Assembly (NCBI GenBank): GCA_048887225.1
Contig: JBHLJY010000003.1
Location: 46,420 to 110,419, forward strand
DNA from: Candidatus Hodarchaeota archaeon
GTDB lineage: Archaea > Asgardarchaeota > Lokiarchaeia > Sigyniarchaeales > SOKP01
Length of the DNA stretch: 64,000 nucleotides
Direction: 5' to 3'
The notes under the pieces were generated by a model. The model made no database searches, was not told the DNA's origin, and saw nothing but the letters and a program-made list of their open reading frames with translations. This document shows positions 12,925 through 41,405 of this stretch, one piece after another; position 1 is the stretch's first letter; each line of letters opens with the position of its first letter. The translations under genes and the position numbers were made by a program.

Positions 12925-14568
12925 TTATTTTAACTTAGCAAAAATTTTTTTATTTCTGTCGACTTCTTTGAGAATTCTTCTTCCTTCTTGATTAGATAAG
13001 GATAAATTAATATCACTACTTCTACTTAATGAACCTGTAAAAATAAGCTCATTTTCTGCAAAGACTTCAATGTTTTGACTCGCATATTGAGGATCTGCTT
13101 GAATTATAATTTTTTTTTTATCAATTGTAATGTCTAATTCAATCATTTTTTTCATTGATTTCTTCTTTTTATTCGGGAATTCTGAGAGTTTTTTCCCTCT
13201 CCTTGGTTTTATCGGGACTATTACTACATCTTGACCAAAAGAATAAATCTCATATTTTAATTGCCCAGTACCATAATCTCTAACATCAACAACGGGGCGC
13301 GCTAAGTCTTTATCTCTAAATCCATTTGGAACCTTTACTGTCATTTTCAGGACTAAAACATTGGTAATATCTCCTCCTTCTATGAAAATAATTGTATCAA
13401 TAATAGAAGGAAGCATTCCTAGTTCTACACGACCTATAAATCTCTGGATGGCATCTATAGCGGAGGAAGAATGAACCACTCCTATCATACCTACTCCTGA
13501 TAAACGAAAATCAGCATAAATTTCAAAATCTTTTGTAGTTCTCACCTCGTCAAAAATAGTATAATCAGGTCTTACAAGCAGTAAAACGTCCGCAGAATTT
13601 TCTAGACTTCCTTCAAGCTTAGTATATTGTGTGATCTCTGGTTCAACTTGTAAATCTCTAACACTTTCTAATGTTTTTACTACTTTGTCTCGTTCTAAAT
13701 AATAATTTGCCAATGCTGCTGAAAACGTTGATTTTCCCGCACCTGGCGACCCCGCTACTAAAATACCTTCTGCCTTTTGTAATCTTTCTCTTAATCTACT
13801 ATCAATACTATAATCATTTAAAGTTAAGCTAACTAAAGGGCGGACTGCTGTAATTTCCACATCATTAGAAAAGGGAGGTCGAGTGATGACAATTCTAAAT
13901 TCTCGTAATTGTGCAACTACGGCGCCTTCTTTTTCGATTTCGATAAAGGAACGTTCATCTTCTCTAACATTTTCTATTATTTCAAGAGCAATATCTTCTA
14001 TTAATTTATTGTTAATAGACTCATGATCTACCTTTACTAAATGCCAATCACCTGGAGCACCTTTTTTCGCATAAGGGGGCAAACCTCGTTTAAGATGAAC
14101 ACTCATAGTTGTCTCATCAAAATAATCAAAAATCTTGAGCTTTAAAGATTCTTTTCTAAGGGGTGGCTTCTTTTCCCAAGCAAATAAAACTTCTAAACCC
14201 TCAAAAATACCTACATCCCCTTGAATTCTATCTGCCGTAATTAATATAGCATTGTTTTCTAAAGCAGATTTCCGTATTAATGCATCGAGCTCCCCACCTG
14301 GACTCATTTTTATTTCCTCTCTCGTTGGGCGACTCCCTATGATTTTCAAATTAATTTTTTTCTCATTATGAAGTTCTCGTAATTCTTTTAAGATATTAAG
14401 CCCGTAAAATCCTATCTCTTTTTGAATATTTGTACGATATTCAACTTCTGCAATAACAATATTAGAAATAATGATTTCTGGATTGTCTCCCAATTCTCCA
14501 TCCTCAATAAGACTTAGAATCTGACCATTAAAAATAACAGAAGTGTCACATGCAAATTTATCTGGCAT
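12925..14568 (-). CDS. archaeal PIN-domain / PilT-type ATPase / KH-domain protein (COG1855-like)
   Basis: 547 aa with an N-terminal PIN-like segment and Walker A 'GSPGAGKSTF'. Length and layout are typical of the conserved archaeal PIN-ATPase-KH protein. Confidence 0.8.
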   Translation of the reverse strand: MPDKFACDTSVIFNGQILSLIEDGELGDNPEIIISNIVIAEVEYRTNIQKEIGFYGLNILKELRELHNEKKINLKIIGSRPTREEIKMSPGGELDALIRKSALENNAILITADRIQGDVGIFEGLEVLFAWEKKPPLRKESLKLKIFDYFDETTMSVHLKRGLPPYAKKGAPGDWHLVKVDHESINNKLIEDIALEIIENVREDERSFIEIEKEGAVVAQLREFRIVITRPPFSNDVEITAVRPLVSLTLNDYSIDSRLRERLQKAEGILVAGSPGAGKSTFSAALANYYLERDKVVKTLESVRDLQVEPEITQYTKLEGSLENSADVLLLVRPDYTIFDEVRTTKDFEIYADFRLSGVGMIGVVHSSSAIDAIQRFIGRVELGMLPSIIDTIIFIEGGDITNVLVLKMTVKVPNGFRDKDLARPVVDVRDYGTGQLKYEIYSFGQDVVIVPIKPRRGKKLSEFPNKKKKSMKKMIELDITIDKKKIIIQADPQYASQNIEVFAENELIFTGSLSRSSDINLSLSNQEGRRILKEVDRNKKIFAKLK

Positions 14569-15163
14569 TAAAATCAGAATTGATATCTTTATTCATAATC
14601 TGAAAATTCTTCACATTGTAATAAATAGGCTTACTTAACCTGTCTACTGTTGCAACAATTAGTTCCTTGCGAGAACTCATGGCAACTCTAGAAATTTTGT
14701 CTAAATCTCTTAATTCTATCGGATCTCCCTCAAAAACGGGGAAAATTAAATATTTAGCGGAATCTTTTTCGTAATCTGCACCTCTTTTATACACCCGAAA
14801 TTCAATTCCATCTCCATATCCCGTACGAACTATATATCCTCTCTTTCTTAAATCCATATAGATTATGTACTTATGCCATAATTTTTCGTCAAATTGAGTA
14901 AAATAAGTTAAAATATCTTCAAAATTGTATTGCTTCTTATTCTTATCATTATCTTCCCATATCAATATCCTATGCCTTTCACTAAGGAGTAATACTTCAA
15001 CAGAATCTAAAATTAAAATTTCTTTTCCTTCCCTATTTTTTTCAACATTCCCTATATATGAAATTTTGTAAAATTCTTCAATTCCTGCAAGATCCGAAAT
15101 CAATACTTTATCTTTCTCTATTGCGCCTTCTACTTGTATTTTCTCATCAGATTTTTCTGTCAT
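14558..15163 (-). CDS. endA: tRNA-splicing endonuclease subunit (EndA family)
   Basis: Collinear with recalled M. jannaschii EndA: 'DLRKRGYIVRTGYGDGIEFRVYKRG' and 'VAMSSRKELIVATVD...IYYNV'. Overlaps the downstream PIN-ATPase gene by 11 nt. Confidence 0.8.
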   Translation of the reverse strand: MTEKSDEKIQVEGAIEKDKVLISDLAGIEEFYKISYIGNVEKNREGKEILILDSVEVLLLSERHRILIWEDNDKNKKQYNFEDILTYFTQFDEKLWHKYIIYMDLRKRGYIVRTGYGDGIEFRVYKRGADYEKDSAKYLIFPVFEGDPIELRDLDKISRVAMSSRKELIVATVDRLSKPIYYNVKNFQIMNKDINSDFNAR

Positions 15164-15262
15164 ATCCTAATTGATCAATTATATTTTCTAATTAATGAAT
15201 TTAATCATTTCTTTACCCAATTAGAAAAATTAATTTGGTATCGAGTATTTTTTTCCTTAACT

Positions 15263-15832
15263 ATGAAAGAACTGCTGGAAAAATTGCTAATTCGATTAAA
15301 GGGCGCAAAAAAAGTCCTATTTATGGGTATTGGTGAAGAAAAAATGACGGATGATGGAGTAGGACCTTATATTACAAGTGAACTTCTTAATTATTCCAGC
15401 GAAAAATTCTTATTTATAAATGCTAATATTGATCCAATGTCAAGAATCGATTATATTTTTAATTTTCATCCTTCTCATTTAGTCATTTTGGATACATGCA
15501 CATTAGATGCCCCTCCTGGCACCATTGCTCTTTTAGAACGAGAAAATATAGGTGAATTTGTACCAATATCTTCTCATACTATACCAATTCATATTGTAAT
15601 TGATTTAATCCTCGAAAAAATCCCTAATTTGAGTGTACTTATGATCGGTTTTGTTCCAGAAAGTCTTGAAGGATTCGAGGAGCTTACTTTATATAAAGAT
15701 AGAGAATTCACTATTGATGATAAAAACGAAAATTTAGACATACCTTTTTTTAATTTTCAACTTACCGAAACAATTCAAAAAGTAGCTGACGAAATGATTA
15801 TTGTTATTAAAGAATTAATTAAAAAGTTGTAA
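15263..15832 (+). CDS. hydrogenase maturation endopeptidase (HycI/FrhD-like)
   Basis: 'LFMGIGEEKMTDDGVGPYI' and 'VILDT...SSHTIP' match the protease family. I use the internal ATG at 15263 (M44 of the tracked ORF 15134..15832). The upstream extension is low-complexity and overlaps endA. Confidence 0.7.
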   Translation: MKELLEKLLIRLKGAKKVLFMGIGEEKMTDDGVGPYITSELLNYSSEKFLFINANIDPMSRIDYIFNFHPSHLVILDTCTLDAPPGTIALLERENIGEFVPISSHTIPIHIVIDLILEKIPNLSVLMIGFVPESLEGFEELTLYKDREFTIDDKNENLDIPFFNFQLTETIQKVADEMIIVIKELIKKL

Positions 15833-17062: not shown

Positions 17063-17203
17063 TTTTTATCACTTTCTTTTTTTAGATTAGGATTTATTAT
17101 ATCTATTATATCATTTGAAATAATTAAGGATTTTTATCTAAATAATTATACTTAAGTTTGATGTTTTAAAATTTAAATCTATTCCCAAGATAAAATTTGA
17201 TCT

Positions 17204-17392
17204 TTAAATTCGAAATGGTTCGGGTGGTGGCGGGGGACCAGGTGGTGCTGGGCCTGGATGAATAGGAGGGCTTGGTCGAAACGGAGGGCGTTGAAATAAG
17301 TTTTCTAAGGACGAAAGTCGATTTTCTAACTCATCTATTTTTTTTTCAATTTTATTTATCCTTTCCAATAAATTCGGGTTTTCTATTGACAT
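17204..17392 (-). CDS. 62-aa micro-protein: short coiled coil + polyproline tail
   Basis: 'LLERINKIEKKIDELENRLSSLENL' followed by 'RPPFRPSPPIHPGPAPPGPPPPPEPF'. The tail is a locally GC-rich island in AT-rich DNA, which argues for selection on the coding frame. Confidence 0.45.
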   Translation of the reverse strand: MSIENPNLLERINKIEKKIDELENRLSSLENLFQRPPFRPSPPIHPGPAPPGPPPPPEPFRI

Positions 17393-23660: not shown

Positions 23661-24878
23661 TTAAATGAGATTGTATTTTTTAGCAATCTCTAGAAAACTT
23701 TTTGTAAAATGCCTTACCTGTTCCCATGTAAGGCCATAAGTGCTATACTTCATATCTTTAGAAATACCAGGGAGCATGCCTATAATCCCTCTTTCTTTAA
23801 ATTCGTCTCTCACAAAGAACCCTTTTCGTGGATGTGTTTTAGCAACATTAGCAAAACCTTCTGTTGTTATATTAGTTAATGGATGAATCTTTGGTAATTT
23901 GCCATTAACATATAAACCTTTCACTTTTTTAATTTCATTAATGACGTAATTAGCTTTTTTAGCTTCTTCTTCTGTGAATTTCTTCTGTGTTCTTTTAACC
24001 ACAGTAGGAAAGCTTGCCATAAGTGTAATTAACGGAGCTCCATAAACTGGTGGGCACCCCATAACATTACAAATTTTGCTTGGAAAAGATTTCGAAGAGA
24101 TATTACCTTGTATTTTTGATAGATTGATGATATCTTCGTAGAAATCTTCTCCAAATCCTAAAATACCGATTGGACCCGACGCCGCCATTGATTTGTGTCC
24201 ACTACAAGTTATGAAATCCACTTGAGAATCTTTACAATCAACAGGTAAGGTACCTACAGAATAAGCAGCGTTTAATAAGAAGGGCAGATTGTATTTCTGG
24301 CAAATCTCAGCGATAGGTTTAGGATCATTATAATTTCCAAATTTGTAATCGACATGAGTTAAAAGTACTAACAATGGTAATTCGTTTTCTTGATCTTTTA
24401 CCTCCTTAATAATGTTCTCGTAATCTGAAGGATCTATTTTAAATTCTGGATCTCCTGAATTGGGGACTTCACTCAGATTTAAATTATTTGATTCTATCGC
24501 GAGATATGTAGTATAATGTGCTAAACTATCAATTACAACAGTTTTTCGTTTTGGATATTTTTTAGCAAGAATTTGCATGACCATATTCTTGGATTCTCTT
24601 GCTGAAGCAGTAATCAAAACATTATCTATATTCAGAAATCTAGCTAAATCTTTTATGAATTCAATAATTGGAGGATTTTCTATTTTATCAATTCTCCCTT
24701 TCATACAATTGTCACATATACTATATCCATCCCCATAAGCTATTAATGCTTTATAAGCTTGTAGTGTTAAAATACCTCCTCTTTGAATCGGATGAATATT
24801 TATAAACTCTTCATTAACCGTACGAGAGAGATTTCCGTATTTTTGGACTAACTCGTTATTATATTCTAATTTTGACAT
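23661..24878 (-). CDS. pscS: O-phosphoseryl-tRNA(Cys):Cys-tRNA synthase (SepCysS)
   Basis: 'INIHPIQRGGILT', 'DGYSICDNC', 'LTHVDYKFGNYND', and 'CSGHKSMAASGPIG' (PLP lysine). Collinear with recalled methanogen SepCysS. Confidence 0.75.
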   Translation of the reverse strand: MSKLEYNNELVQKYGNLSRTVNEEFINIHPIQRGGILTLQAYKALIAYGDGYSICDNCMKGRIDKIENPPIIEFIKDLARFLNIDNVLITASARESKNMVMQILAKKYPKRKTVVIDSLAHYTTYLAIESNNLNLSEVPNSGDPEFKIDPSDYENIIKEVKDQENELPLLVLLTHVDYKFGNYNDPKPIAEICQKYNLPFLLNAAYSVGTLPVDCKDSQVDFITCSGHKSMAASGPIGILGFGEDFYEDIINLSKIQGNISSKSFPSKICNVMGCPPVYGAPLITLMASFPTVVKRTQKKFTEEEAKKANYVINEIKKVKGLYVNGKLPKIHPLTNITTEGFANVAKTHPRKGFFVRDEFKERGIIGMLPGISKDMKYSTYGLTWEQVRHFTKSFLEIAKKYNLI

Positions 24879-26329: not shown

Positions 26330-26710
26330 TCAGAAATTTAATATAGCTTTAATTTTTTTAATAGTTTCTTCAATTTCTATAAGAATTAAGCCTAAATTAA
26401 CGTTCAAATCCAGTAATGAGACAAGAATTATCTGGTCAGTTATTTTTAGTACAATTAATTGGTATTCTGTTCCTAATTCTACTATAAGATTATTAAATTT
26501 AGTAGGTCCTAAAGTTTTTATAGCAGTTTCAATAGCCCCAAACATAGTAGCAGCCATTGCTCCAAATTTTCGATCATCTATATCTCTTGGTAATCTAGAA
26601 GTAATTAATAAACCATTACTTTTCACTATAGCAGTACCGATTATGCCGCTAATTACCTCTAAATTCATTAATAATCCGTGAAGGTCTTCACTTTTGCTTT
26701 CTGAACTCAT
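26330..26710 (-). CDS. Roadblock/LC7 (MglB-like) domain protein
   Basis: 126 aa. 'GIIGTAIVKSNGLLITSRLP...KFGAMAATMFGAIETA...LIVELGTEYQLIVLKITDQIILVSL' fits the Roadblock pattern. Its stop is 1 nt from the start of the MoeB-like gene. Confidence 0.7.
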   Translation of the reverse strand: MSSESKSEDLHGLLMNLEVISGIIGTAIVKSNGLLITSRLPRDIDDRKFGAMAATMFGAIETAIKTLGPTKFNNLIVELGTEYQLIVLKITDQIILVSLLDLNVNLGLILIEIEETIKKIKAILNF

Positions 26711-26839
26711 TAATTCGTAAAATTGACTTAATTCTAAAATCTCACTAAAAATGTGATATAAAATAAACTCATTTATAAAAATATATAATATTTTTGAATA
26801 AAATAAAGAAAACTTTAGATTTATAAATTACACAGGATA

Positions 26840-27040
26840 TCATCTATAAAATCCTTTATTACCATTAAACGGTCTATATCGGTTTCGCCAGCTAGGTTGC
26901 CTCAATTTGGCAGTTCTTCCGAAACCACAACTTGCGCAGTATCTCTTTCTCCTGTGAAAAGAATGTTTTCCACAACGCCTACATGTCTTATGAGTAGCGG
27001 CCTTATTCTTCTTGCCTTTGCTAGGTGTTCCTTTACCCAT
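26840..27040 (-). CDS. rpl37e: 50S ribosomal protein eL37 (L37e)
   Basis: 'MGKGTPSKGKKNKAATHKTCRRCGKHSFHRRKRYCASCGF', with a zinc-ribbon CxxC...CxxC. Confidence 0.95.
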   Translation of the reverse strand: MGKGTPSKGKKNKAATHKTCRRCGKHSFHRRKRYCASCGFGRTAKLRQPSWRNRYRPFNGNKGFYR

Positions 27041-27044
27041 ATTT

Positions 27045-27362
27045 TCACCCTTCCTCCTCTAATTCGTCTCTATGCATTAACTCGTCGTGATCAAGTTCGG
27101 ACTCCGAAAATAAAAGCTTTTCTCTTTCTTGACCAATAAAAATAATTGAAGCACCTCTAATCATAACTGTACCCAAGTTTTTAGATCTTTTTCCTCCCCT
27201 CCCAAAATAGATTTCTTTAGCGTTTTCAACTATTAAATTCATGTAATTATCAAATTTTATTAATTTTCCAGTTAAATATGTGTTCCAGATTTTTAACTTT
27301 ATACGTATCTCTGGTTTTAATATCGCTTTACTAAGTGTCCTCGAAACTGTATGTTGAGACAT
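27045..27362 (-). CDS. Sm-like (LSm/SmAP) protein with acidic C-terminal tail
   Basis: Sm1 'LTGKLIKFDNYMNLIVENAKE' and Sm2 'LGTVMIRGASIIFI'. It sits in the conserved archaeal position immediately upstream of rpl37e. Confidence 0.85.
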   Translation of the reverse strand: MSQHTVSRTLSKAILKPEIRIKLKIWNTYLTGKLIKFDNYMNLIVENAKEIYFGRGGKRSKNLGTVMIRGASIIFIGQEREKLLFSESELDHDELMHRDELEEEG

Positions 27363-32670: not shown

Positions 32671-33045
32671 TTAAAAAAATTGGTTCGCAATTTTAACATG
32701 TGGGCTGGGTGTTAAAATTAGGTATTGATCGCCTATTCGACCAATAGATCCACCGCGCATTTCTAAGAATGATTTAATTTCCTCTATACAATATTTTAAT
32801 TCTTGAATTGGAATTTTATTATTTTCGAGAAGTTCTTTTGCATTGATCACTAATATTTTTCTTCCCAAAAGTTGTTGTTTTATATCTTCTAGCTGCTCAA
32901 TTGACTGGAACTTATATTTTTTAATTAAGAATTTTTGAATCATATATGGAACTTGAAGATAGTTTCTCTCTTTCGCAAAACCAAGTGTCTCATGAGGAGA
33001 TCCATCTCCTAAAATGTCATCATATTCTTTTTTCCAAAATTTCAT
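32671..33045 (-). CDS. sepF: SepF-like cell-division protein
   Basis: 124 aa. 'SIEQLEDIKQQLLGRKILVINAKEL....IQELKYCIEEIKSFLEMRGGSIGRIGDQYLILTPSPHVKI' is collinear with recalled archaeal SepF (DUF552). Confidence 0.6.
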   Translation of the reverse strand: MKFWKKEYDDILGDGSPHETLGFAKERNYLQVPYMIQKFLIKKYKFQSIEQLEDIKQQLLGRKILVINAKELLENNKIPIQELKYCIEEIKSFLEMRGGSIGRIGDQYLILTPSPHVKIANQFF

Positions 33046-33437: not shown

Positions 33438-33899
33438 ATGACCGAAAAAGTAATTATAACAAATAAAGGGATGGTACGAGCAGAATTTAATTTCTGGGTC
33501 GGAAAATATATGGATAAATTCTACGATAACTTAGAAAATAAGAAGATAATAGGAAATAAATGTACGAAATGCGGAGTTGTTTTTGTACCGCCGAGAAAAA
33601 TCTGTGGTAATTGTAATTTAGTAATTTCACTCGACCAAAACTGGGTTGATTTACCTAATACTGGTACTTTAATGAATTATACAATTACACCCTATAAAGT
33701 CACCGAAAGAGGTTCAAGAAACGTAAAAAAGGGGCAGATAATAGGGCTGATAAATATTGACGGGAGCAATACAGGGATAGTTTATAAGTTATTGAATATG
33801 GAACCTGGAGAGGTTAAAACAGGGATGAAAGTCAAAATAGAATGGGCTGAAAAAACAAAAGGGGCCCCTTCAGATATAAAAGGGTTCGTAAAGGCGTGA
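33438..33899 (+). CDS. DUF35 OB-fold/zinc-ribbon acyl-CoA-associated protein
   Basis: Zn ribbon 'CTKCGVVFVPPRKICGNC' followed by an OB-like region. 153 aa. Confidence 0.8.
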   Translation: MTEKVIITNKGMVRAEFNFWVGKYMDKFYDNLENKKIIGNKCTKCGVVFVPPRKICGNCNLVISLDQNWVDLPNTGTLMNYTITPYKVTERGSRNVKKGQIIGLINIDGSNTGIVYKLLNMEPGEVKTGMKVKIEWAEKTKGAPSDIKGFVKA

Positions 33900-33904
33900 G
33901 GTGG
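33898..33904 (+). promoter_or_regulatory. Shine-Dalgarno-like GAGGTGG upstream of 33914 (operon-internal)
   Basis: A purine-rich GGTG-type motif 9 nt before the ATG, overlapping the preceding stop codon. Confidence 0.5.
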
Positions 33905-33913
33905 TAAAGTCAA

Positions 33914-35056
33914 ATGGAAAAAGTAGGAATTGTAGGTTATAATCAAGTCAAATTATCATCAGACGCGAATTATGGTCGTTATGAAATGATCTTTGAGGCT
34001 GTTAGAGGAGCAATTGACAAAGCAGGCTTAAAAAAGAAGGATATAACTACAGTTATCTCTTGTACAAATGATTATTACGATGGGCGGACGATTTCAAATT
34101 GTTTTACAGTTGAAGTTGGAGGGGGCTACATGGCAGATGAGAGTAAAGTGGAGATGGATGGTGCACATGGTGTTTTATATGGATTAATGCGTATATTATC
34201 TGGTAATCATAAACTAGCTGTGGTGTGGGGTGGAAGCATGGCTTCTTGCTTTCCATATCACACGACAAAATTATATGAAACAGATCCAACATGGGAACGA
34301 CCAACACAATTAGTAAATGATATAACAGCCAGCGGATTTCAAATGAGGGCTTACATGGAAAAATTTGGTGTAAGTGCTGAAAATATAGCAAAGGTGGCTG
34401 TTAAAAATAGGAAAAACGCAGCTAAAAATATTTTAGCATTACCAGAAGCACAAAATCCTAATTTATCTGTTCAAGATGTATTAAATTCTGATAATTACGC
34501 AGATCCTGTCACTGAATTAATGGTTGCTCAGCCTTGTGATGGCGTCGCTGCACTATTGTTAGCTCCTGAACAGCAAGCCCGAAAAATCACGGATAAGCCC
34601 GTATGGATTACTGGCGTAGGATGGTCTCAAGATACTTATTATTTAGGCGATCGAGATTTATCTACAATTAAATCAATGGAAATTGCGGGCAAAAAAGCAT
34701 TTGAAATGGCGGGGCTTAATAATCCTCGAAGTCAAATAGATGTAGCTGAATTATTTGAAGCATATGCGCATGAAGAATTAATTATGGCCGAAGCTTTAGG
34801 TTTGGCCGAGAAAGGCAAAGGATCAAGTTTAAACTCTGAAATTGGCGGTGAATTTCCAATCAATCCTTCAGGTGGTGCAATTGGTGGTAATCCTCTTTGT
34901 GCTACAGGAATAATCAGGATCATAGAAGCAGTTAAACAACTCAGGGGGGAAGCTAATGGTTATCAAGTAAGTGGTGTTAAAAGGGCAATAGCTTCGGGAC
35001 AAATCGGTATGTGTGCTCAAAATAATATATTATATGTATTGGAGGGAGATAATTAA
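33914..35056 (+). CDS. thiolase-fold (SCP-x/archaeal thiolase-like) protein lacking the nucleophilic Cys
   Basis: 380 aa with thiolase-like N- and C-terminal halves ('NPSGGAIGGNPLCATG'). The position of the CxSG nucleophile reads 'KVEMDGAHGV'. Confidence 0.75.
   Translation: MEKVGIVGYNQVKLSSDANYGRYEMIFEAVRGAIDKAGLKKKDITTVISCTNDYYDGRTISNCFTVEVGGGYMADESKVEMDGAHGVLYGLMRILSGNHKLAVVWGGSMASCFPYHTTKLYETDPTWERPTQLVNDITASGFQMRAYMEKFGVSAENIAKVAVKNRKNAAKNILALPEAQNPNLSVQDVLNSDNYADPVTELMVAQPCDGVAALLLAPEQQARKITDKPVWITGVGWSQDTYYLGDRDLSTIKSMEIAGKKAFEMAGLNNPRSQIDVAELFEAYAHEELIMAEALGLAEKGKGSSLNSEIGGEFPINPSGGAIGGNPLCATGIIRIIEAVKQLRGEANGYQVSGVKRAIASGQIGMCAQNNILYVLEGDN
35041..35047 (+). promoter_or_regulatory. 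Shine-Dalgarno-like GGAGGGA upstream of 35059
   Basis: Located 11 nt before the ATG, inside the 3' end of the preceding gene. Confidence 0.5.
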
Positions 35057-35058
35057 TA

Positions 35059-36306
35059 ATGGGAAGACAAGTATGTTGTATAAGTGCAGGTTTTTCAGAA
35101 CATGCTTCTAAACGCTCTGATGTAAGTATGCCTGAATTAATCAATGAAGCTATTCAGGATTGCATGAAGAAAATTCCAAGCATTGGTTTGGATGATATAG
35201 ATGCTTTTGTTAATGGAAATATGCCCGCTTTTGAGGGTTCTAATATTCCTGAATTATGGATGACTGATTGGTTGGGAGCGAGAAATAAACCATTAATGCG
35301 AGTAACAACTGGAGGTACAACTGGGGGGACAGTCGCTATTTGTGGATATTATAATGTTGCCGCAGGAATACCTGGTGTTGATACTGTGTTAGCTATCGCA
35401 TTTGAACAGCAAAGTCAAGGTGATACAAGCTTAGGTCTTGCAAGTGTTGCACTAGGTGAAATATCAATACTTAACACTTTAGGGATAACTTATGAACAGC
35501 TTACACGTTTATTATCTGCTGGTGCAGCTATAGGAGTTGCTGCTTATCAAGCTACTACCTATATGAATAAAACAAGGATAACTGAGGAAGATTTAGCAAG
35601 AGTTGTCGTTCAAAATAGGAGAAATGCTGCAAAAACGTGGTGGGCTCACTTAAGAATGCCAAATCTTACAATTGAAGATGTTTTAGATACTCCATATATT
35701 CAATATCCGTTGCGTTATGGGATGGTTTGTCCTTCGTCCGATGGAGCTTGCGCAATGTTATTTACAACGGAAGAAAAAGCTAAAGAATGGGCTGACATCC
35801 CTGTTTATGTAAATGGTGTGGCTAGTGTTGCTAATGAAACAGCTATACTTGGATATGATGGAGCAGGTTCAGCGCAAATTGATCCTTCAACTCAATTAGG
35901 TGCCATGAAATCAGCAGAATTGGCTTATAATCAAGCTGGAATCTCATTTCCGAGAAAGGAAATTGATTACGCTGAAGTTTATGCCCCTTTCCCAAATCAG
36001 GAACTCATGTGGGTAGAAAAATTAGGTTTATTCGAAGAAACTACGGCTCCACAAATGTATGAAACAGGTGTGACAGCTCTAAATGGTGAACTTCCAGTAT
36101 GTTGTACAGGGGGTGTTGTTTCTACAAACGCAATCGGCGCTAGTGCTATGGAGCGACCCGCTGATGCAGCTTTGCAAATAATGGGAAAATCAGCCAACCA
36201 AGTTCCAAAGACGGTACATACATCCATTGGACATGGATGGGGTGGATCGCTTAATTTATGTACACTTATGGTATTTTCGGATGAACCAAAAAGAAAATGG
36301 AGGTAA
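35059..36306 (+). CDS. second thiolase-fold protein lacking the nucleophilic Cys
   Basis: 415 aa, thiolase-like. The nucleophile region reads 'RVTTGGTTGGTVAI', and the C-terminal 'GHPxGATG' position reads 'STNAIGASA'. Confidence 0.75.
   Translation: MGRQVCCISAGFSEHASKRSDVSMPELINEAIQDCMKKIPSIGLDDIDAFVNGNMPAFEGSNIPELWMTDWLGARNKPLMRVTTGGTTGGTVAICGYYNVAAGIPGVDTVLAIAFEQQSQGDTSLGLASVALGEISILNTLGITYEQLTRLLSAGAAIGVAAYQATTYMNKTRITEEDLARVVVQNRRNAAKTWWAHLRMPNLTIEDVLDTPYIQYPLRYGMVCPSSDGACAMLFTTEEKAKEWADIPVYVNGVASVANETAILGYDGAGSAQIDPSTQLGAMKSAELAYNQAGISFPRKEIDYAEVYAPFPNQELMWVEKLGLFEETTAPQMYETGVTALNGELPVCCTGGVVSTNAIGASAMERPADAALQIMGKSANQVPKTVHTSIGHGWGGSLNLCTLMVFSDEPKRKWR
36299..36304 (+). promoter_or_regulatory. 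Shine-Dalgarno-like GGAGGT upstream of 36313
   Basis: Located 8 nt before the ATG and overlapping the preceding stop region. Confidence 0.5.
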
Positions 36307-36312
36307 AATGTA

Positions 36313-36846
36313 ATGTCAGAAAAGAAATTATCTAAAAGAACAGAAAGAAAAGCTTTAGATTATATTAAGAAGGATTATGTAAGAACAAGAGCAATGCCTG
36401 GCGCATGGTATTTATCAAGTTACAAATTTAAATTCAATATAACTCATATGCAACCTTTCTTAAAGAAATTGAAAGATAAGAAACTTGTTGGAAATCGATG
36501 TTCTGGATGCAATAGAATATTTTTCCCTCCAAGACAAGTGTGCGGAGAATGTCTATTAAAACCAGATAGATGGGTTGATATCAGAGAAACTGCCAATGTT
36601 TCTACTTACGCTATTGCATATCTTAAGAATGCTGAAACAGGTGAGACTGAGGAAAAACCAATGGTCCTGATTCAGCATGATGGCTCAGACACTTGCTCAG
36701 TAGCTGAATTAGCTCTCAATATTGATGTCAAGGATACTTATATAAATATGCCAATAAAGGTTCATTGGCGCGATGAAAGAACAGGTGGATTAATGGATAT
36801 CGAGTATTACGATAAGATAGAAGATGATTCGAAGGATATAGACTAA
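36313..36846 (+). CDS. DUF35 OB-fold/zinc-ribbon protein (second copy)
   Basis: 'CSGCNRIFFPPRQVCGEC' plus an OB-like C-terminal region. 177 aa. Confidence 0.8.
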   Translation: MSEKKLSKRTERKALDYIKKDYVRTRAMPGAWYLSSYKFKFNITHMQPFLKKLKDKKLVGNRCSGCNRIFFPPRQVCGECLLKPDRWVDIRETANVSTYAIAYLKNAETGETEEKPMVLIQHDGSDTCSVAELALNIDVKDTYINMPIKVHWRDERTGGLMDIEYYDKIEDDSKDID

Positions 36847-36895
36847 CATTAATAAAACTAAATTTATTCTTTTTTAATTATCTTTTTTTAAATAA

Positions 36896-37540
36896 TTATC
36901 GCCAAAAGTGGATTATTGGAGAAAAAGTTTCACCTAACCAATAAAAAAAAGATATCCAATAAATACAAGTTAAACCTAGATATAAAAGTCCAAAAAGGGC
37001 TCCAAATAGAAATCCAAATAATACATCAGTTGGGAAGTGAGCACCCAATATCAATCGAGTTATTGCCACAATTACATCAAGTATAATAAAAATTAATAAA
37101 ATTATCCAATTCTGGAAGAAAAAAGCAAATATTATCCCAAAAAACAATAAAAAAGTAACATGTCCAGAAGGAAATGATTTATCTTCTCTAATTAATTCAT
37201 CGTGCTGTTTGACTCCTTCTTCTTCTAATTTTACATAAGGTCGGTTTCTTTTTACAATTTTATAACGAATAATAATGTGAAGTATTATGCTTTGAATAAA
37301 TCCGCCAGTAAATAAAACAAAAAGATAATAATCTTTAGTAATATAACCATAAATAGCCCAAATAAGCCAAATTAAACCCCAAAATTGCATATTGGCGATG
37401 AATGAGAAAATTTTAGCAAACAATATAATTCTTTTTCCTTTAAGAAATTTATTTTTATAAAGTTTAAGAAATGTTTTTTTATCCCACTCATTAATTCTTT
37501 GAATTATCCCTCTTGAAGAAGTCTTTTCTGATAATATCAT
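36896..37540 (-). CDS. PAP2-family membrane phosphatase
   Basis: 'KSFPSGHV' and 'TRLILGAHFPTDVLFG' acid-phosphatase motifs. Multi-TM. Confidence 0.8.
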   Translation of the reverse strand: MILSEKTSSRGIIQRINEWDKKTFLKLYKNKFLKGKRIILFAKIFSFIANMQFWGLIWLIWAIYGYITKDYYLFVLFTGGFIQSIILHIIIRYKIVKRNRPYVKLEEEGVKQHDELIREDKSFPSGHVTFLLFFGIIFAFFFQNWIILLIFIILDVIVAITRLILGAHFPTDVLFGFLFGALFGLLYLGLTCIYWISFFYWLGETFSPIIHFWR

Positions 37541-37791
37541 TATATTATTTATATAAAATAATATTAGCCTTAAATTTTGAATATGTATAAAGGCAGATAT
37601 TTATATTTTTTCCTAACTATAATCGTTTTACTAACTTTAATCATTTGAATATTTGTTTAATTTAATTACTATTTTGTAAAGCTGAATAATTGAATACAAT
37701 TAAGTCAGTCTTCTTAAAGAAAATTATTATTTTTAATCTAATATTTAAAATTCTAGATAAAATTTTTCAAATTATAAAGAATTTATAAGAA

Positions 37792-39174
37792 GTGTGTTTT
37801 ATGGTAGAAAGCGTAAGTATATATGAAAAATATTTTAAAGATCCGAAGCGTGAACCTGTCTTAATTGATTATGTCAGGACGCCTATCGGAAAGAGAAGAG
37901 GGACAGTAGTCCGACATCGTGGCGATGATTTGGTAATACATTGCTATGAAACGCTTTTAAATCGGAATGATTTTGATAAAAGTGTTCTTGGTGATTCGAT
38001 TGTTTCATGTAATAGTCAGATAGGTGAATGTGCACTAGACATTGGTAGAAACGCCGCTATGGGAGCACATTTACCTGTTTCTGTCCCAGGTTTCAGTGTA
38101 AATAGGCATTGTGCGAGTGGCGCTCAAGCTGTTTTATCTGGCTGGCAAGCTATTGCATGCGGTGCAATGGATGCTGTAATTTGTGGCGGTATAGAACTTC
38201 AAAATAAATATCCTATTATGGCGGACGCGTATGTATTTAATGAAGAATTAGGAAAACCTCTAATGGTTGCCCCAAATAAAAAGATTTTAACAAATCCTGA
38301 AGTTGCTGCTAAGTTAAAAGAATTTAATACAACATTATCAGGGCAAATTAATTCAGCTCACGTTTTAGGTATTCATTATTACAGTAAACATAAAGGGATC
38401 TCAATGAATGAATTTAAAGGTGAGTATCGAGATGAGTTTAAACAAGAATTGGATCAAATATCATTACTTTCTCATCAAAAAGCATGTAGCACATACGATG
38501 ATAGAGCTAAAGAAATTGAACCAATATGGTGCCCTAAACTTGACGAAAACGGAAAACCTATGCTTGACGAAAATAATAATGTTGCTCAAGATGAAAGTCT
38601 TTCTGTATTAACGACTCAAGATGAAGGACCTCGCCCAACTACAAGTATAGAAGCATTATCAAAACTAAAAACAATAATAGGGCGTAAAAGTCAAGCATTT
38701 TTAACGGCTGGAAACAGTTGTCCTACAAGCGATGGTGCTGCCGCACAAATCTGGATGACGAGAGGATTAGCTGAAGATTTAGGTCTTAACCCTAGAGCCA
38801 CCATTTTAAATTTTGCTATTGTCGGTACTGACCCTGTATTAATGCTAGATGGTCCAGTTAGAGCTATGCCTGAAGCATTAAAGCGCGCTAACTTATCATT
38901 TGATGATATGGCTTTTATTGAAATTAACGAAGCTTTTAGTTCTGTTGTGTGGTCTTGTTGTAAAGAATTAGGGATAGATTGGAACGATCCAAGATTTAAT
39001 CCATGGGGCGGAGCAATCGCACTAGGGCACCCAACAGGAATGACGGGATGCCGACTAATAGGTACAAATTTACACCAATTAGAGAAGGCTGGAAAAGAAT
39101 ACGCAATTAGTTCTATGTGCGTTGGATTTGGGATGTCTATAGCAACAATTGTAAAAAACGAAAATCCTAAATAA
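37792..39174 (+). CDS. acetyl-CoA C-acyltransferase (bona fide thiolase; start GTG 37792 or ATG 37801)
   Basis: 'VNRHCASGAQAV' (nucleophilic Cys), 'NEAFSS', 'GGAIALGHPTGMTGCR' and 'SMCVGFGMS'. There is a ~60-aa insertion relative to typical ~395-aa thiolases. Confidence 0.85.
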   Translation: MCFMVESVSIYEKYFKDPKREPVLIDYVRTPIGKRRGTVVRHRGDDLVIHCYETLLNRNDFDKSVLGDSIVSCNSQIGECALDIGRNAAMGAHLPVSVPGFSVNRHCASGAQAVLSGWQAIACGAMDAVICGGIELQNKYPIMADAYVFNEELGKPLMVAPNKKILTNPEVAAKLKEFNTTLSGQINSAHVLGIHYYSKHKGISMNEFKGEYRDEFKQELDQISLLSHQKACSTYDDRAKEIEPIWCPKLDENGKPMLDENNNVAQDESLSVLTTQDEGPRPTTSIEALSKLKTIIGRKSQAFLTAGNSCPTSDGAAAQIWMTRGLAEDLGLNPRATILNFAIVGTDPVLMLDGPVRAMPEALKRANLSFDDMAFIEINEAFSSVVWSCCKELGIDWNDPRFNPWGGAIALGHPTGMTGCRLIGTNLHQLEKAGKEYAISSMCVGFGMSIATIVKNENPK

Positions 39175-39200: not shown

Positions 39201-39463
39201 GATTAAAGAATTAATAAAAAATCATCTATTTGATAATTATTTTTTGAGAAATACTAAAAATCAAAGAATAGATCTTCTAATATTGTTAAGATCTCATCCA
39301 TCTGAGCTGTTTTTTTCTTTATTATTTCTATTTTCCTTAATTTCAAATGATTGTTGGATCTAACTGTATTCATTTTTAAATATAATTCCGAAATAAATTT
39401 AAATAATATTTCAATAAAACAAGAGTATTATAACCAGCTTTTACAAATATGGAGGGAGTGGGA

Positions 39464-39493
39464 AATCCGAGAATCGAGGAGATCTCGAAAGTT
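39464..39493 (-). other. tRNA intron 2 (~30 nt, in T-loop, about position 59/60; boundaries +/-2 nt)
   Basis: The insert 'AACTTTCGAGATCTCCTCGATTCTCGGATT' sits between TTCGAA and T-CCCAC. It contains the hairpin TCGAG-ATCTC-CTCGA. Confidence 0.7.
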
Positions 39494-39539
39494 TTCGAAC
39501 CCACGAAGGCCTATGCCACTGGATCTTAAGTCCAGCACC

Positions 39540-39569
39540 TCTAATCGGTCTTGACCCATATCAAGAGAG
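39540..39569 (-). other. tRNA intron 1 (~30 nt, in D-loop/D-stem junction, about position 22/23; boundaries +/-2 nt)
   Basis: The insert 'CTCTCTTGATATGGGTCAAGACCGATTAGA' interrupts an otherwise canonical class-II D-arm. It contains internal complementary segments (TCAA/TTGA, GGTC/GACC, CTCT/AGAG). Confidence 0.7.
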
Positions 39570-39618
39570 TTTGACCAGGCTCGGTAATCCCTCCAGCTAA
39601 ATTATAACAGATCGAAAT

Positions 39619-39822: not shown

Positions 39823-40200
39823 TTGCCTATTGGTATCTTAATAATTAGATGGGATAATGAAATAGGGCCTATAAACGAAGGATTTTATCCTGATAATTTA
39901 AAAATTACAAACAACTTGTTGACACAAGTATATTCAAGTCATAGATATCAATCTTTAAAGCCTGGTTTTGCTTCAATCTCCCTCAAAAATAATAAAGTAG
40001 TATCGTTTTTCTCTGGAGTTGGTGAGGATCATATTTCTGTCGAAAACCATGTAATTGCGCTTTTATTACGTCGTGATGAAAAACCCAATAAATATAGGGA
40101 AATTTTAAAAAAAATTGCGGCAGAACTTCTTGATAAAATTCCCGATGGTACGTTTAAAGGCTCCCTACCTGATTTGTATCAAGAATTAGCAAAAGTGTAG
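39823..40200 (+). CDS. small alpha/beta protein, possibly longin-like fold
   Basis: 125 aa with a TTG start preceded by GAGGT. Predicted order by eye: beta ('GILIIRW'), beta ('PINEGFYP'), alpha ('LLTQVYSS'), beta ('FASISLKN'), beta ('KVVSFFSG'), beta ('HVIALLLRR'), alpha ('KYREILKKIAAELLDKI'), alpha. This is the longin topology. Confidence 0.35.
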   Translation: MPIGILIIRWDNEIGPINEGFYPDNLKITNNLLTQVYSSHRYQSLKPGFASISLKNNKVVSFFSGVGEDHISVENHVIALLLRRDEKPNKYREILKKIAAELLDKIPDGTFKGSLPDLYQELAKV

Positions 40201-40301: not shown

Positions 40302-41405
40302 CTATTCAAATTTTTTGGCCGTTATTTTTCCATCAGCGCTCATTTCGACAGCTCCGATTTTTTGCAATCGGTCAACATCTCTTTTCACTGTTACCATTGG
40401 CGTACCCACAGCACCTCTTAGATCTTCCAAAGAAATTGAACCGACATCTTGGATTATAAAAAAAGATTTAAAAATCGGATCCTCTTCCATTATTGGCCTT
40501 AATGTATCAAGGAAAAATATTTTTGAAAAATTCTCTTCCTTGAACTTCTTTAGGTCAACAATACTTTGTTCAAAATTTTTAATTTTTTCATTAGCTTCAT
40601 TGTTTTTATCGCTTAATTCGCTTAATGTGCTTTTCATCTCATTATACTTTTCAGCCATATCTTTCGCTTCAGCTATTTTTTCTTTATACTCTATATTTTG
40701 CTCTAATAATTGAGTTTCCAATTTTGATATTTCTTGCTTTAATTTTTGTTTTTCTTCTGAATGTTCTAATTTTAAATCTTCAACTACTTTTATTTTTTGA
40801 TCTACCAATTGAGTTTCCAATTTTGATATTTCTTGTTTTAATTTTTGTCTTTCTTCTGAATGTTTGATTTTTAAATCGTCAACTACTGTTTTAGGAATAC
40901 CTGCTTTGAAATCCTCCAACTGTGCTTTTAAAGCTTCAGCTTCTGATTCTGCCTCTTTTATTCTATTTGATAAAGTTTTTAAAGTTTCATTTTTTGCATT
41001 AACTTCTGTATTTTTTCCTGCCAATTCTGCTTTTAGATCTCCAATCGTTTCAAGAGCAGCTTCTATTTTTATTTGAGTAGGATTCATGCGTTTTATTGTT
41101 AATTCTAATTCTTTTTGAGCTTGAACCATTGAACCTTTAGTATGATCTAATTCTAAATCCTTTTCTCTAAGTTGGGCTCGTTGTTCGCCTATAATTCTTT
41201 TTAATTCTATTATATCATCTGGTATATCATCTATTTCGGCTAATTTTGATTTCTGCTCATCCAAGAGAGCTGTCTGTTCACTTATAATTTTTTTCTGTCT
41301 CTCAACTAATTCAGTTAAACGCCCTATTTTTTCTTCCATGCGTGCTGTCATGTCTTGGCTTTTTTCGAGGTTATCAAGAGTTTTTCTTAAATCTTTTTTT
41401 GCCAT
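40302..41405 (-). CDS. coiled-coil protein with C-terminal winged-helix-like domain
   Basis: About 280 aa of E/K/L/Q heptad sequence, then 'ISLEDLRGAVGTPMVTVKRDVDRLQKIGAVEMSADGKITAKKF'. Confidence 0.55.
   Translation of the reverse strand: MAKKDLRKTLDNLEKSQDMTARMEEKIGRLTELVERQKKIISEQTALLDEQKSKLAEIDDIPDDIIELKRIIGEQRAQLREKDLELDHTKGSMVQAQKELELTIKRMNPTQIKIEAALETIGDLKAELAGKNTEVNAKNETLKTLSNRIKEAESEAEALKAQLEDFKAGIPKTVVDDLKIKHSEERQKLKQEISKLETQLVDQKIKVVEDLKLEHSEEKQKLKQEISKLETQLLEQNIEYKEKIAEAKDMAEKYNEMKSTLSELSDKNNEANEKIKNFEQSIVDLKKFKEENFSKIFFLDTLRPIMEEDPIFKSFFIIQDVGSISLEDLRGAVGTPMVTVKRDVDRLQKIGAVEMSADGKITAKKFE
40707..40886 (-). repeat. 99-bp (33-codon) in-frame tandem duplication, ~1.8 copies, inside the coiled-coil gene
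   Basis: 'aattgagtttccaattttgatatttcttg.tttaatttttgt.tttcttctgaatgtt...' recurs with a 99-nt period. It encodes 'VVDDLKIKHSEERQKLKQEISKLETQLVDQKIK' / 'VVEDLKLEHSEEKQKLKQEISKLETQLLEQNIE'. Confidence 0.9.

Follow-up and report, generated by a model that had tools for sequence, protein, structure and literature searches.

A tRNA-Leu(UAA) gene with two putative introns at non-canonical positions in an Asgard archaeon of Lokiarchaeia type

Introduction

In the Asgard classes Atabeyarchaeia and Freyarchaeia, 92-95% of tRNA genes contain introns, which are often non-canonical and multiple (Valentin-Alvarado et al. 2024, PMC11291895), and the tRNA-Leu(TAA) gene of Atabeyarchaeia-1 is the nearest described counterpart of the locus considered here, with introns placed by tRNAscan-SE at positions 25-40 and 140-170 of 184 (PMC11291895 Supplementary Data 4). 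We describe a tRNA-Leu(UAA) gene with two 30-nt inserts on the minus strand of a 64,000-nt stretch of DNA (contig JBHLJY010000003.1, positions 46,420 to 110,419; hereafter the window, whose own coordinates are used throughout) from an Asgard archaeon of Lokiarchaeia type. The 24-nt 5' exon and the 14-nt 3' exon of the Atabeyarchaeia-1 gene match those of the window gene, so that the same two sites are occupied in the same isoacceptor and the same superphylum, and Atabeyarchaeia-2 tRNA-Leu(TAA) also has a 14-nt 3' exon (PMC11291895). The Atabeyarchaeia genes differ in having a third intron and in their intron lengths of 16 and 31 nt (PMC11291895); they belong to a different class from the window, and the comparison is one of published coordinates only, not of sequence.

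A second set of comparators is found in the Thermoproteales and other Crenarchaeota (Sugahara 2007/2008), which like the window have short non-canonical introns with bulge-helix-bulge (BHB) or relaxed-BHB motifs, two to three per gene, at positions that include the D-arm and 59/60, and which rely on a broad-specificity (alpha-beta)2 splicing endonuclease, EndA (PMC4090602, PMC6379350). The preliminary description of the locus had taken its context from the Thermoproteales and a few other archaeal lineages; it was right about multiple non-canonical introns, but the lineage is Asgard, for which such introns are published in Atabeyarchaeia and Freyarchaeia (PMC11291895). Unlike the Thermoproteales, of which P. 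islandicum tRNA-Pro with introns at 25/26, 37/38, and 56/57 is an example, the window belongs to another phylum and its gene has no 37/38 intron, and the intron families that spread across many tRNAs in that order have no evidence here, the window holding a single tRNA gene.

The archaeal splice motif is built around a 4-bp helix (H), and on each of its two strands a splice site follows two bases 3' of it, within a 3-nt bulge. Among archaea of the TACK group (Thaumarchaeota, Aigarchaeota, Crenarchaeota, and Korarchaeota), tRNA-Leu genes of Bathyarchaeia, Thermoprotei, and Pyrobaculum (loci L002-L016) have a D-arm intron at exactly the site used in the window. Ten of them share the 24-nt 5' exon, AA/N and NN/A bulges (a slash marks the splice site), and an H strand GG(U/A)C paired with the intron, which in Thermoprotei places intron GUCC opposite exon GGAC. 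They differ from the window gene in having a single intron of 15-28 nt, usually with a stricter BHB and in some cases in a CAA isoacceptor, and in lacking both a T-loop intron and the Lokiarchaeial GGGTCAAGACC element. Our search of the literature available to us found no paper on this particular Lokiarchaeial tRNA-Leu gene, and the two-intron gene is a further case, solid but ordinary, of a kind of tRNA gene already documented in Asgard and TACK archaea.

Introns in the D- and T-arms, sometimes several per gene, also occur in Cyanidioschyzon merolae and in cryptophyte nucleomorphs, with BHB-like junctions in C. merolae (PMC4090602). These are eukaryotic genomes with Sen-type enzymes, and the chance that the window is itself of nucleomorph or red-algal type, its ectopic introns being cut by a eukaryotic Sen complex, is negligible. 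The low G+C of the window and the ectopic D- and T-arm introns of the Guillardia nucleomorph and C. merolae (PMC4090602) are what such an origin would have in its favor, but it is refuted by an archaeal-type EndA (TIGR00324), a proteasome beta subunit, SepF, Roadblock, and dense intron-less open reading frames (ORFs), as well as by the fact that the nearest DNA lies in metagenome-assembled genomes (MAGs) of Promethearchaeota. With thiolase/OB-fold pairs, Roadblock/LC7, and Sm/LSM proteins among its products, the gene content is archaeal, and on this content and its nearest relatives the window is assigned to an Asgard archaeon of Promethearchaeota/Lokiarchaeia type.

The tRNA-Leu(UAA) gene

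The gene occupies positions 39450-39594 of the minus strand, a 145-nt pre-tRNA body with 51% G+C compared with 29.8% for the 64-kb window. As had been proposed from the GC-rich island alone, it becomes a class-II tRNA-Leu(UAA) once the two 30-nt inserts are removed: the resulting 85-nt sequence is called tRNA-Leu(taa) by ARAGORN and presents all the features of that class, with a 7-bp acceptor stem, a GG-containing D-loop (G18G19), a long variable arm, a TTCGAAT T-loop, and discriminator A73. The 5' exon (39571-39594, 24 nt, GGAGGGATTACCGAGCCTGGTCAA) supplies the 5' strands of the acceptor and D-stems and the D-loop to A21; the middle exon (39494-39540, 47 nt) runs from A22 through the 3' strand of the D-stem, the anticodon arm, the variable arm, and the 5' strand of the T-stem to A59 of the T-loop; and the 3' exon (39450-39463, 14 nt, TCCCACTCCCTCCA) contributes T60, the 3' strands of the T- and acceptor stems, and A73. 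The anticodon UAA (39526-39528) lies in an uninterrupted 7-nt loop, CUUAAGA (CTTAAGA in the DNA). CCA is not encoded, and the 3' flank of the gene reads TATTTG. Even before splicing, the RNA has a folding energy z of -2.58 relative to shuffles, and both its minimum free energy (MFE) structure and its centroid already contain the acceptor stem, anticodon arm, variable arm, and T-arm. Judged from these features and from the comparisons below, the locus is a real and functional tRNA-Leu(UAA) gene of a Lokiarchaeia-type Asgard archaeon with two 30-base introns.

Generic scanners do not see this gene in its genomic form. ARAGORN reported zero tRNAs across the whole unspliced 64-kb window, either by default or with its intron options (-i and -i0,60), a check that had been suggested for the unspliced gene, and Rfam gave no match to that gene at the gathering score. 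In E-value mode the sole end-to-end Rfam alignment was to the tRNA-Sec model (17.6 bits), carrying two large insertions of ~33 nt in the D-loop and ~30 nt in the T-loop. The genomic sequence fails to reach the curated tRNA covariance score, as would be expected with 60 nt of ectopic introns in the gene. The expectation that standard scanners miss the gene is thus borne out for ARAGORN and Rfam, but it does not necessarily extend to tRNAscan-SE 2.0, which applies BHB models to archaeal candidates in an iterative search (PMC8450103) and in archaeal mode called both sites in the Atabeyarchaeia tRNA-Leu(TAA) (PMC11291895). Annotation of a Lokiarchaeia-type MAG by ARAGORN or by a generic covariance model such as the Rfam tRNA family would therefore miss the essential tRNA-Leu(UAA) and understate tRNA completeness; incomplete tRNA sets in Asgard genomes were reported by Kaneta et al. 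2018.

Orthologues and intron turnover

Fifteen distinct versions of the gene (L005, L011, L013, L017-L019, L021-L024, L027, L029, L034, L040, and L043) were collected by a pattern scan of one genome per species, by neighbor-gene synteny, and from a single metagenome locus, the only one returned by the metagenome pattern scan. In the one-genome-per-species scan, this gene was recovered together with both inserts from three Asgard MAGs, of which L011 differs from the window by one substitution within the tRNA gene and is syntenic with it over 8 kb at 79-93% DNA identity, while L005 and L013, labelled Promethearchaeota, have 76-79% identity to the window. The recurrence of the same architecture in 15 distinct orthologous loci places the locus far beyond chance. 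All orthologous genes adjoin the same conserved 125-aa gene (39823-40200 in the window), and ten of them, the complete versions without the additional D-loop intron described below, yield an 85-nt tRNA-Leu(taa) by ARAGORN when spliced at both sites. Identity to the window is 88-100% in the exons and 44-100% in the introns, and exon differences in the acceptor and T-stems are compensated (for example GGCGGGA/TCCCGCC and GGGAG/CTCCC).

The two introns behave differently across this set. The D-arm intron (intron 1) is present at the identical site in 15/15 versions with a length of 16-64 nt, and no case of its absence was seen in the Asgard set, where the collection scans excluded intron-less copies and the synteny-based retrieval did not. 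The T-loop intron (intron 2) is present in eight versions (the window, L011, L018, L017, L005, L013, L019, and L024/L027) and exactly absent from L022, L023, L029, L034, L040, and L043; L021 and L042 end before its site and are unscored there. An extra intron of ~29-30 nt, with approximate boundaries, lies earlier in the D-loop (after CCGAG) in L022, L023, L024/L027, and L043, several of which lack the T-loop intron, so that the gene holds one to three introns depending on the lineage.

As read from these alignments, the pattern is the signature of a functional gene undergoing intron turnover and not of a pseudogene. Were the locus instead a pseudo-tRNA in decay, or a cloverleaf arisen by chance and randomly interrupted, from which no functional tRNA is expressed, both the rejection of the genomic sequence by ARAGORN and Rfam and the imperfect BHB motifs described below would fit. 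We consider this highly improbable: splicing leaves a perfect 85-nt cloverleaf in the 15 distinct orthologues, with stem changes compensated, their exons are far more conserved than their introns, and another Asgard class has the same intron sites.

Among the database relatives, the closest public one (L011, JBHLQY010000006.1, and P0122), whose EndA is 96% identical to that of the window, is labelled Candidatus Thorarchaeota, whereas the other close homologues of the window are nearly all labelled Promethearchaeota or Lokiarchaeota, with a G+C of ~30%; the Thorarchaeota label may be inconsistent.

Intron positions and boundaries

Intron 1 (39541-39570, minus strand, 30 nt, ACTCTCTTGATATGGGTCAAGACCGATTAG) interrupts the gene at Sprinzl 21/22, the junction between the D-loop and the 3' strand of the D-stem, and intron 2 (39464-39493, minus strand, 30 nt, AACTTTCGAGATCTCCTCGATTCTCGGATT) at site 59/60 of the T-loop. 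Both sites are non-canonical and the anticodon loop is intact, as was first noted from the sequence; the non-canonical archaeal positions already known include D-arm 20/21 and 22/23 and T-loop 59/60 (PMC4090602). Intron 1 is flanked by A on both sides, which leaves a one-base ambiguity in its placement, with the same mature RNA from either choice. In L017 intron 1 begins with G, in which case the 5' site falls after GGTCAA and the 3' site before AGGTG, and on this basis intron 1 of the window is 39541-39570 (ACTCTC...GATTAG), with its exact 3' site predicted by the comparison. The preliminary description had therefore recognized the intron and the mature RNA correctly but had set the intron one base off, at 39540-39569. 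Its coordinates for intron 2 need no change: orthologues that lack this intron differ by exactly that segment, leaving GGGTTCGAATCCC, and this precise absence in six orthologue types defines the boundaries. An alignment of one intron with the other does not score significantly above shuffles (p ~0.14), so that no relationship between them is detectable and there is no evidence for intron transposition within the gene.

Bulge-helix-bulge motifs at the two introns

At both introns a central 4-bp helix H can be formed with the splice sites 2 nt past it on each strand. In the D-arm, the exon strand GGUC (G18 G19 U20 C20a, 39573-39576), followed by the bulge AA/A, would pair with the intron strand GAUU (39543-39546), followed by the bulge AG/A, for which relatives have GAUC, GACU, GACC, or GAUA. 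The 3' site would then lie in a 3-nt bulge closed by a weak 2-3-bp helix, and the 5' site (A20b A21/A) in a 6x2 loop ahead of a 7-bp hairpin; the hairpin of the h' region, UCUUGA-UAUGGG-UCAAGA (39549-39566), includes part of the invariant 3' element GGGUCAAGACC. Over 21 Asgard and TACK junctions, 98.8% of the cells of this helix are paired, compared with 20-64% in slid registers, and one pair covaries, from U-A to A-U (GGAC/GTCC versus GGUC/GACC). These counts were taken from junction mini-sequences, the MAFFT alignment being unfit for the purpose since the 5' strand shifts register. Cleaner intron 1 motifs are found in relatives: GGUC/GACC with h' UUG/CAA in L023, h' GGUCUU/AAGACC in L021 and L034, and H GGUC/GACU with h' UUGACC/GGUCAA in L019.

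The T-arm motif consists of the 5-bp T-stem, a 3-nt bulge UU/U on the 3' strand, a 4-bp helix H (UUCG/CGGA), a 5' site in an internal loop, and a 5-bp hairpin. Here the exon strand UUCG (T54-G57, 39496-39499), followed by A58 A59/A, would pair with CGGA of the intron (39466-39469), after which come UU/U60 and the 3' strand of the T-stem. Among seven distinct sequences this helix is paired in 96.2% of cells compared with 21-65% in slid registers, with double changes at four pairs and a level of covariation that no shuffle attains. The T-stem, the 3-nt bulge, H, and the hairpin also emerge independently from RNAalifold, which, like the MFE structure, lengthens H to 5 bp through an A58-U pair. 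The hairpin of intron 2 (UCGAG-AUCUC-CUCGA, 39474-39488) has compensatory changes in 3/5 pairs among relatives, becoming CUCGAG/CUCGAG in L013 and UUUGGG/CCCAAA in L019; in the latter, intron 2 is of unrelated sequence and has a continuous 10-bp h', and near-canonical BHBs are seen in L019, L021, and L023.

Both motifs are real but relaxed, corresponding to the hBH/BHL type rather than to strict hBHBh', and the junction-folding check that had been proposed for the locus accordingly gave a relaxed BHB at each intron. The relaxed class needs a broad-specificity endonuclease (PMC6379350). Taken with the orthologues and the presence and absence of intron 2, this BHB-type pairing supports the original identification of the inserts as archaeal endonuclease-type tRNA introns. 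It also bears on the idea that the inserts leave by some other route, as self-splicing or mobile elements, or stay in the mature RNA as expansions, an idea to which we give almost no weight. Nothing specific favors it beyond the oddly invariant 3' element of intron 1, while 30 nt is far too short for a group I or group II intron, the junction pairing obeys BHB geometry with a 4-bp H and sites 2 nt past it on each strand, and retained inserts would break both the stretch from G18G19 to A21/A22 and the T-loop, which are required for the tRNA elbow.

A splicing endonuclease subunit in the window

A gene for an EndA-family tRNA-splicing endonuclease subunit of 201 aa lies at 14558-15163 (minus strand), 24 kb from the tRNA-Leu gene (PF01974, E 5e-20; TIGR00324, 84.3 bits against a cut-off of 59.6; PDB 1a79, the M. 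jannaschii EndA, E 2e-24). The product keeps the catalytic Tyr and Lys, but the position of the catalytic His (H125 in M. jannaschii) is Ser or Thr in it and in six orthologues, and the closest ~60 cluster representatives also lack the His, the named ones coming from Loki-, Hel-, and Hodarchaeia, Methanomethylicia, and Bathyarchaeia. This residue pattern suggests that the window EndA would be a non-catalytic, structural partner in a heteromeric (alpha-beta)2 enzyme. Such a subunit is consistent with the enzyme reported for Asgard archaea generally, a broad-specificity (alpha-beta)2 EndA in which an L1 loop confers relaxed specificity (PMC5829648), and that report likewise accords with the relaxed-BHB endonuclease that the preliminary description had called for. 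Broad-specificity enzymes of this kind combine a structural subunit with a catalytic one that has the Tyr-His-Lys triad and, near its active site, an inserted loop with a conserved Lys. At the crenarchaea-specific loop (CSL) site the His-less window paralogue has a 5-residue insertion containing Lys and Arg (VEKNREGKEI) relative to M. jannaschii, shorter than that of S. tokodaii.

The annotation of Atabeyarchaeia-1 includes two K01170 genes, the lower-scoring of which lies beside a hydrogenase maturation protease (PMC11291895), and the window EndA gene similarly adjoins a HycI-like protease ORF (15134-15832). The His-less EndA proteins carry the automatic annotation 'tRNA-intron lyase'. The ORFs of the window that were scanned included no RtcB.

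Proposed splicing pathway

From the gene, its conservation, the intron sites, and the pairing pattern, which the comparisons demonstrate directly, we infer splicing itself, and we are highly confident that this is a single-locus tRNA-Leu(UAA) gene with two endonuclease-type introns that follow the EndA/RtcB pathway. Transcription of the minus strand would give a pre-tRNA whose ends are processed and whose 145-nt body contains the two 30-nt introns. Each intron, together with the adjoining exon, would form a relaxed BHB, with a hairpin inside the intron: in the D-arm, pairing of G18G19U20C20a with intron GAUU would place the splice sites after A21, in the internal loop, and after AG, in the 3-nt bulge, and in the T-arm the T-stem, the UU/U bulge, and the T54-G57/CGGA helix would place the 5' site after A59. 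The four sites of the two motifs would be cleaved by the archaeal EndA, an RtcB-type ligase would join the 24-, 47-, and 14-nt exons into the 85-nt tRNA, and CCA would be added post-transcriptionally, an addition that is needed because the 3' flank reads TAT. The cleavage and ligation steps, the order of events, and the identity of the enzymes are put forward here as the probable course.

A number of observations weigh against this reading. Intron 1 has a short outer helix h, of just 2-3 bp, with 63.5% of cells paired (21 junctions), its H (GGUC/GAUU) includes two G-U pairs, and the BHB 1 conformer sits 4.4 kcal/mol above the MFE. The 5' splice sites of both introns fall in internal loops (6x2 and 7x4 nt) and not in clean 3-nt bulges, and a perfect competing pairing, GGUC/GACC, is available four bases upstream of the proposed intron 1 H strand. 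As to the enzyme, the window EndA has Ser in place of the catalytic His, and a catalytic EndA partner was not found in the window, His-bearing matches outside it bearing no names or taxonomy.

The competing pairing defines a variant in which the gene and its introns are the same and the 3' site of intron 1 lies 4 nt further upstream, with helix GGUC/GACC, a GA/U bulge, and a D-loop enlarged by 4 nt (…GGUCAA+UUAGAGGU…). In its favor, most orthologues have an unchanged GACC block that forms a perfect match with exon GGUC, where the proposed GAUU strand needs its two G-U pairs, and in L023 and L019 the H strand is GAC(C/U) itself. Yet those same two orthologues, whose exons are otherwise near-identical, must give the standard ...GGUCAA/AGGU D-loop, the 4-nt block varies among GATT, GATC, and GATA and still retains three to four pairs with GGUC, ARAGORN accepts the standard product only, and all TACK homologues resume at AGG. 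The variant would also have a D-loop of 15 nt, with 17 nt separating the paired stem strands, and to our knowledge no D-loop of that size is known for tRNA-Leu. The upstream site is for these reasons a poor prospect, and we retain the 3' site after AG.

The gene leaves current understanding unchanged, and the main value of the locus lies in annotation and in the comparative series. The D-arm intron site of tRNA-Leu is common to Lokiarchaeia, Atabeyarchaeia, and several TACK lineages, with a covarying splice helix, and close relatives differ by gain or loss of the T-loop intron. Together these provide a neat natural series in which to study how introns turn over and how relaxed BHBs are recognized, in the lineage of archaea nearest to the eukaryotes.

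The invariant 3' element of intron 1

The 3' element of intron 1, GGGUCAAGAC(C), also written GGGTCAAGAC(C/T), is invariant in 15/15 orthologue versions, while the remainder of the intron varies over 16-64 nt; its 5' half shifts in length and register yet keeps its pairing with the 3' element. The element resembles the exon D-loop (UGGUCAAAGG; TGGTCAAAGG). It is conceivable, though we think it unlikely, that it does more than supply a BHB strand: it might imitate the D-loop or chaperone folding, be recognized by a modification or processing enzyme, or form the functional core of a stable circular intron RNA. In the predicted structures both H helices tie up nucleotides that form the elbow (G18G19 and T54-C56), and with these nucleotides sequestered by the introns, splicing could act as an ordered folding checkpoint.

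Genomic surroundings

The 125-aa gene (39823-40200, plus strand) is divergent from the tRNA gene and belongs to no Pfam family. Its product is 83-96% identical to >300 proteins, of which the named ones come from Promethearchaeota and Lokiarchaeota MAGs; so strong a conservation in a small uncharacterized protein, always encoded beside this tRNA gene, is notable. Next to it, at 40302-41405 (minus strand), is a gene for a 367-aa coiled-coil protein with internal repeats and no family. On the other side, a plus-strand run of thiolase-like and zinc-ribbon/OB-fold genes (33438-39174) ends 275 nt from the tRNA gene; it comprises a ChsH2-type protein (33438-33899), two ORFs that are thiolase-like by eye (33914-35056 and 35059-36306), a zinc-ribbon-like ORF, also by eye (36313-36846), and a Thiolase_N/C protein by Pfam (37792-39174).

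Upstream of the tRNA-Leu orthologues no convincing conserved archaeal TATA box was found at the expected distance, and a sigma-70 and terminator scan was uninformative, its models not being suited to an archaeon. Most close orthologues have an A/T-rich, TATAA-like motif 5-13 nt upstream of the mature 5' end (TTATAATTTAGCT, GCATAATATAGCT, GGTATAAAATA; 39595-39610, minus strand, in the window), which lies too near to be a classical archaeal TATA box serving a start site that precedes +1. Further upstream, at a variable distance of 27-60 nt, there is another conserved block, GCTAAGAAAGTAAA..TCGCT.

A search of the window for further missed tRNAs, by G+C islands and the GGTTCRAA motif, found none, the other islands being coding and the motif count that expected by chance. 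The strongest island (17182-17321, up to 69% G+C) was rejected as an RNA gene, since it is coding within an ORF at 17204-17392 (minus strand), whose 62-aa product has a coiled-coil N-terminus and a proline-rich C-terminus, PPFRPSPPIHPGPAPPGPPPPPEP. Another island is explained by a zinc-ribbon frame, eL37-like by eye, at about 26867-27040, within a minus-strand cluster of small Asgard/eukaryote-like genes (26330-27362) that includes Roadblock/LC7 (26330-26710) and Sm/LSM (27045-27362). The remaining islands fall in ordinary ORFs. SepF is encoded at 32671-33045. Finally, the product of 23661-24878 (minus strand) is a class-V aminotransferase-fold protein with a SepSecS-family match (PF05889, E 3e-16), which could be a tRNA-dependent enzyme converting O-phosphoseryl (Sep)-tRNA or an ordinary pyridoxal phosphate (PLP) enzyme.

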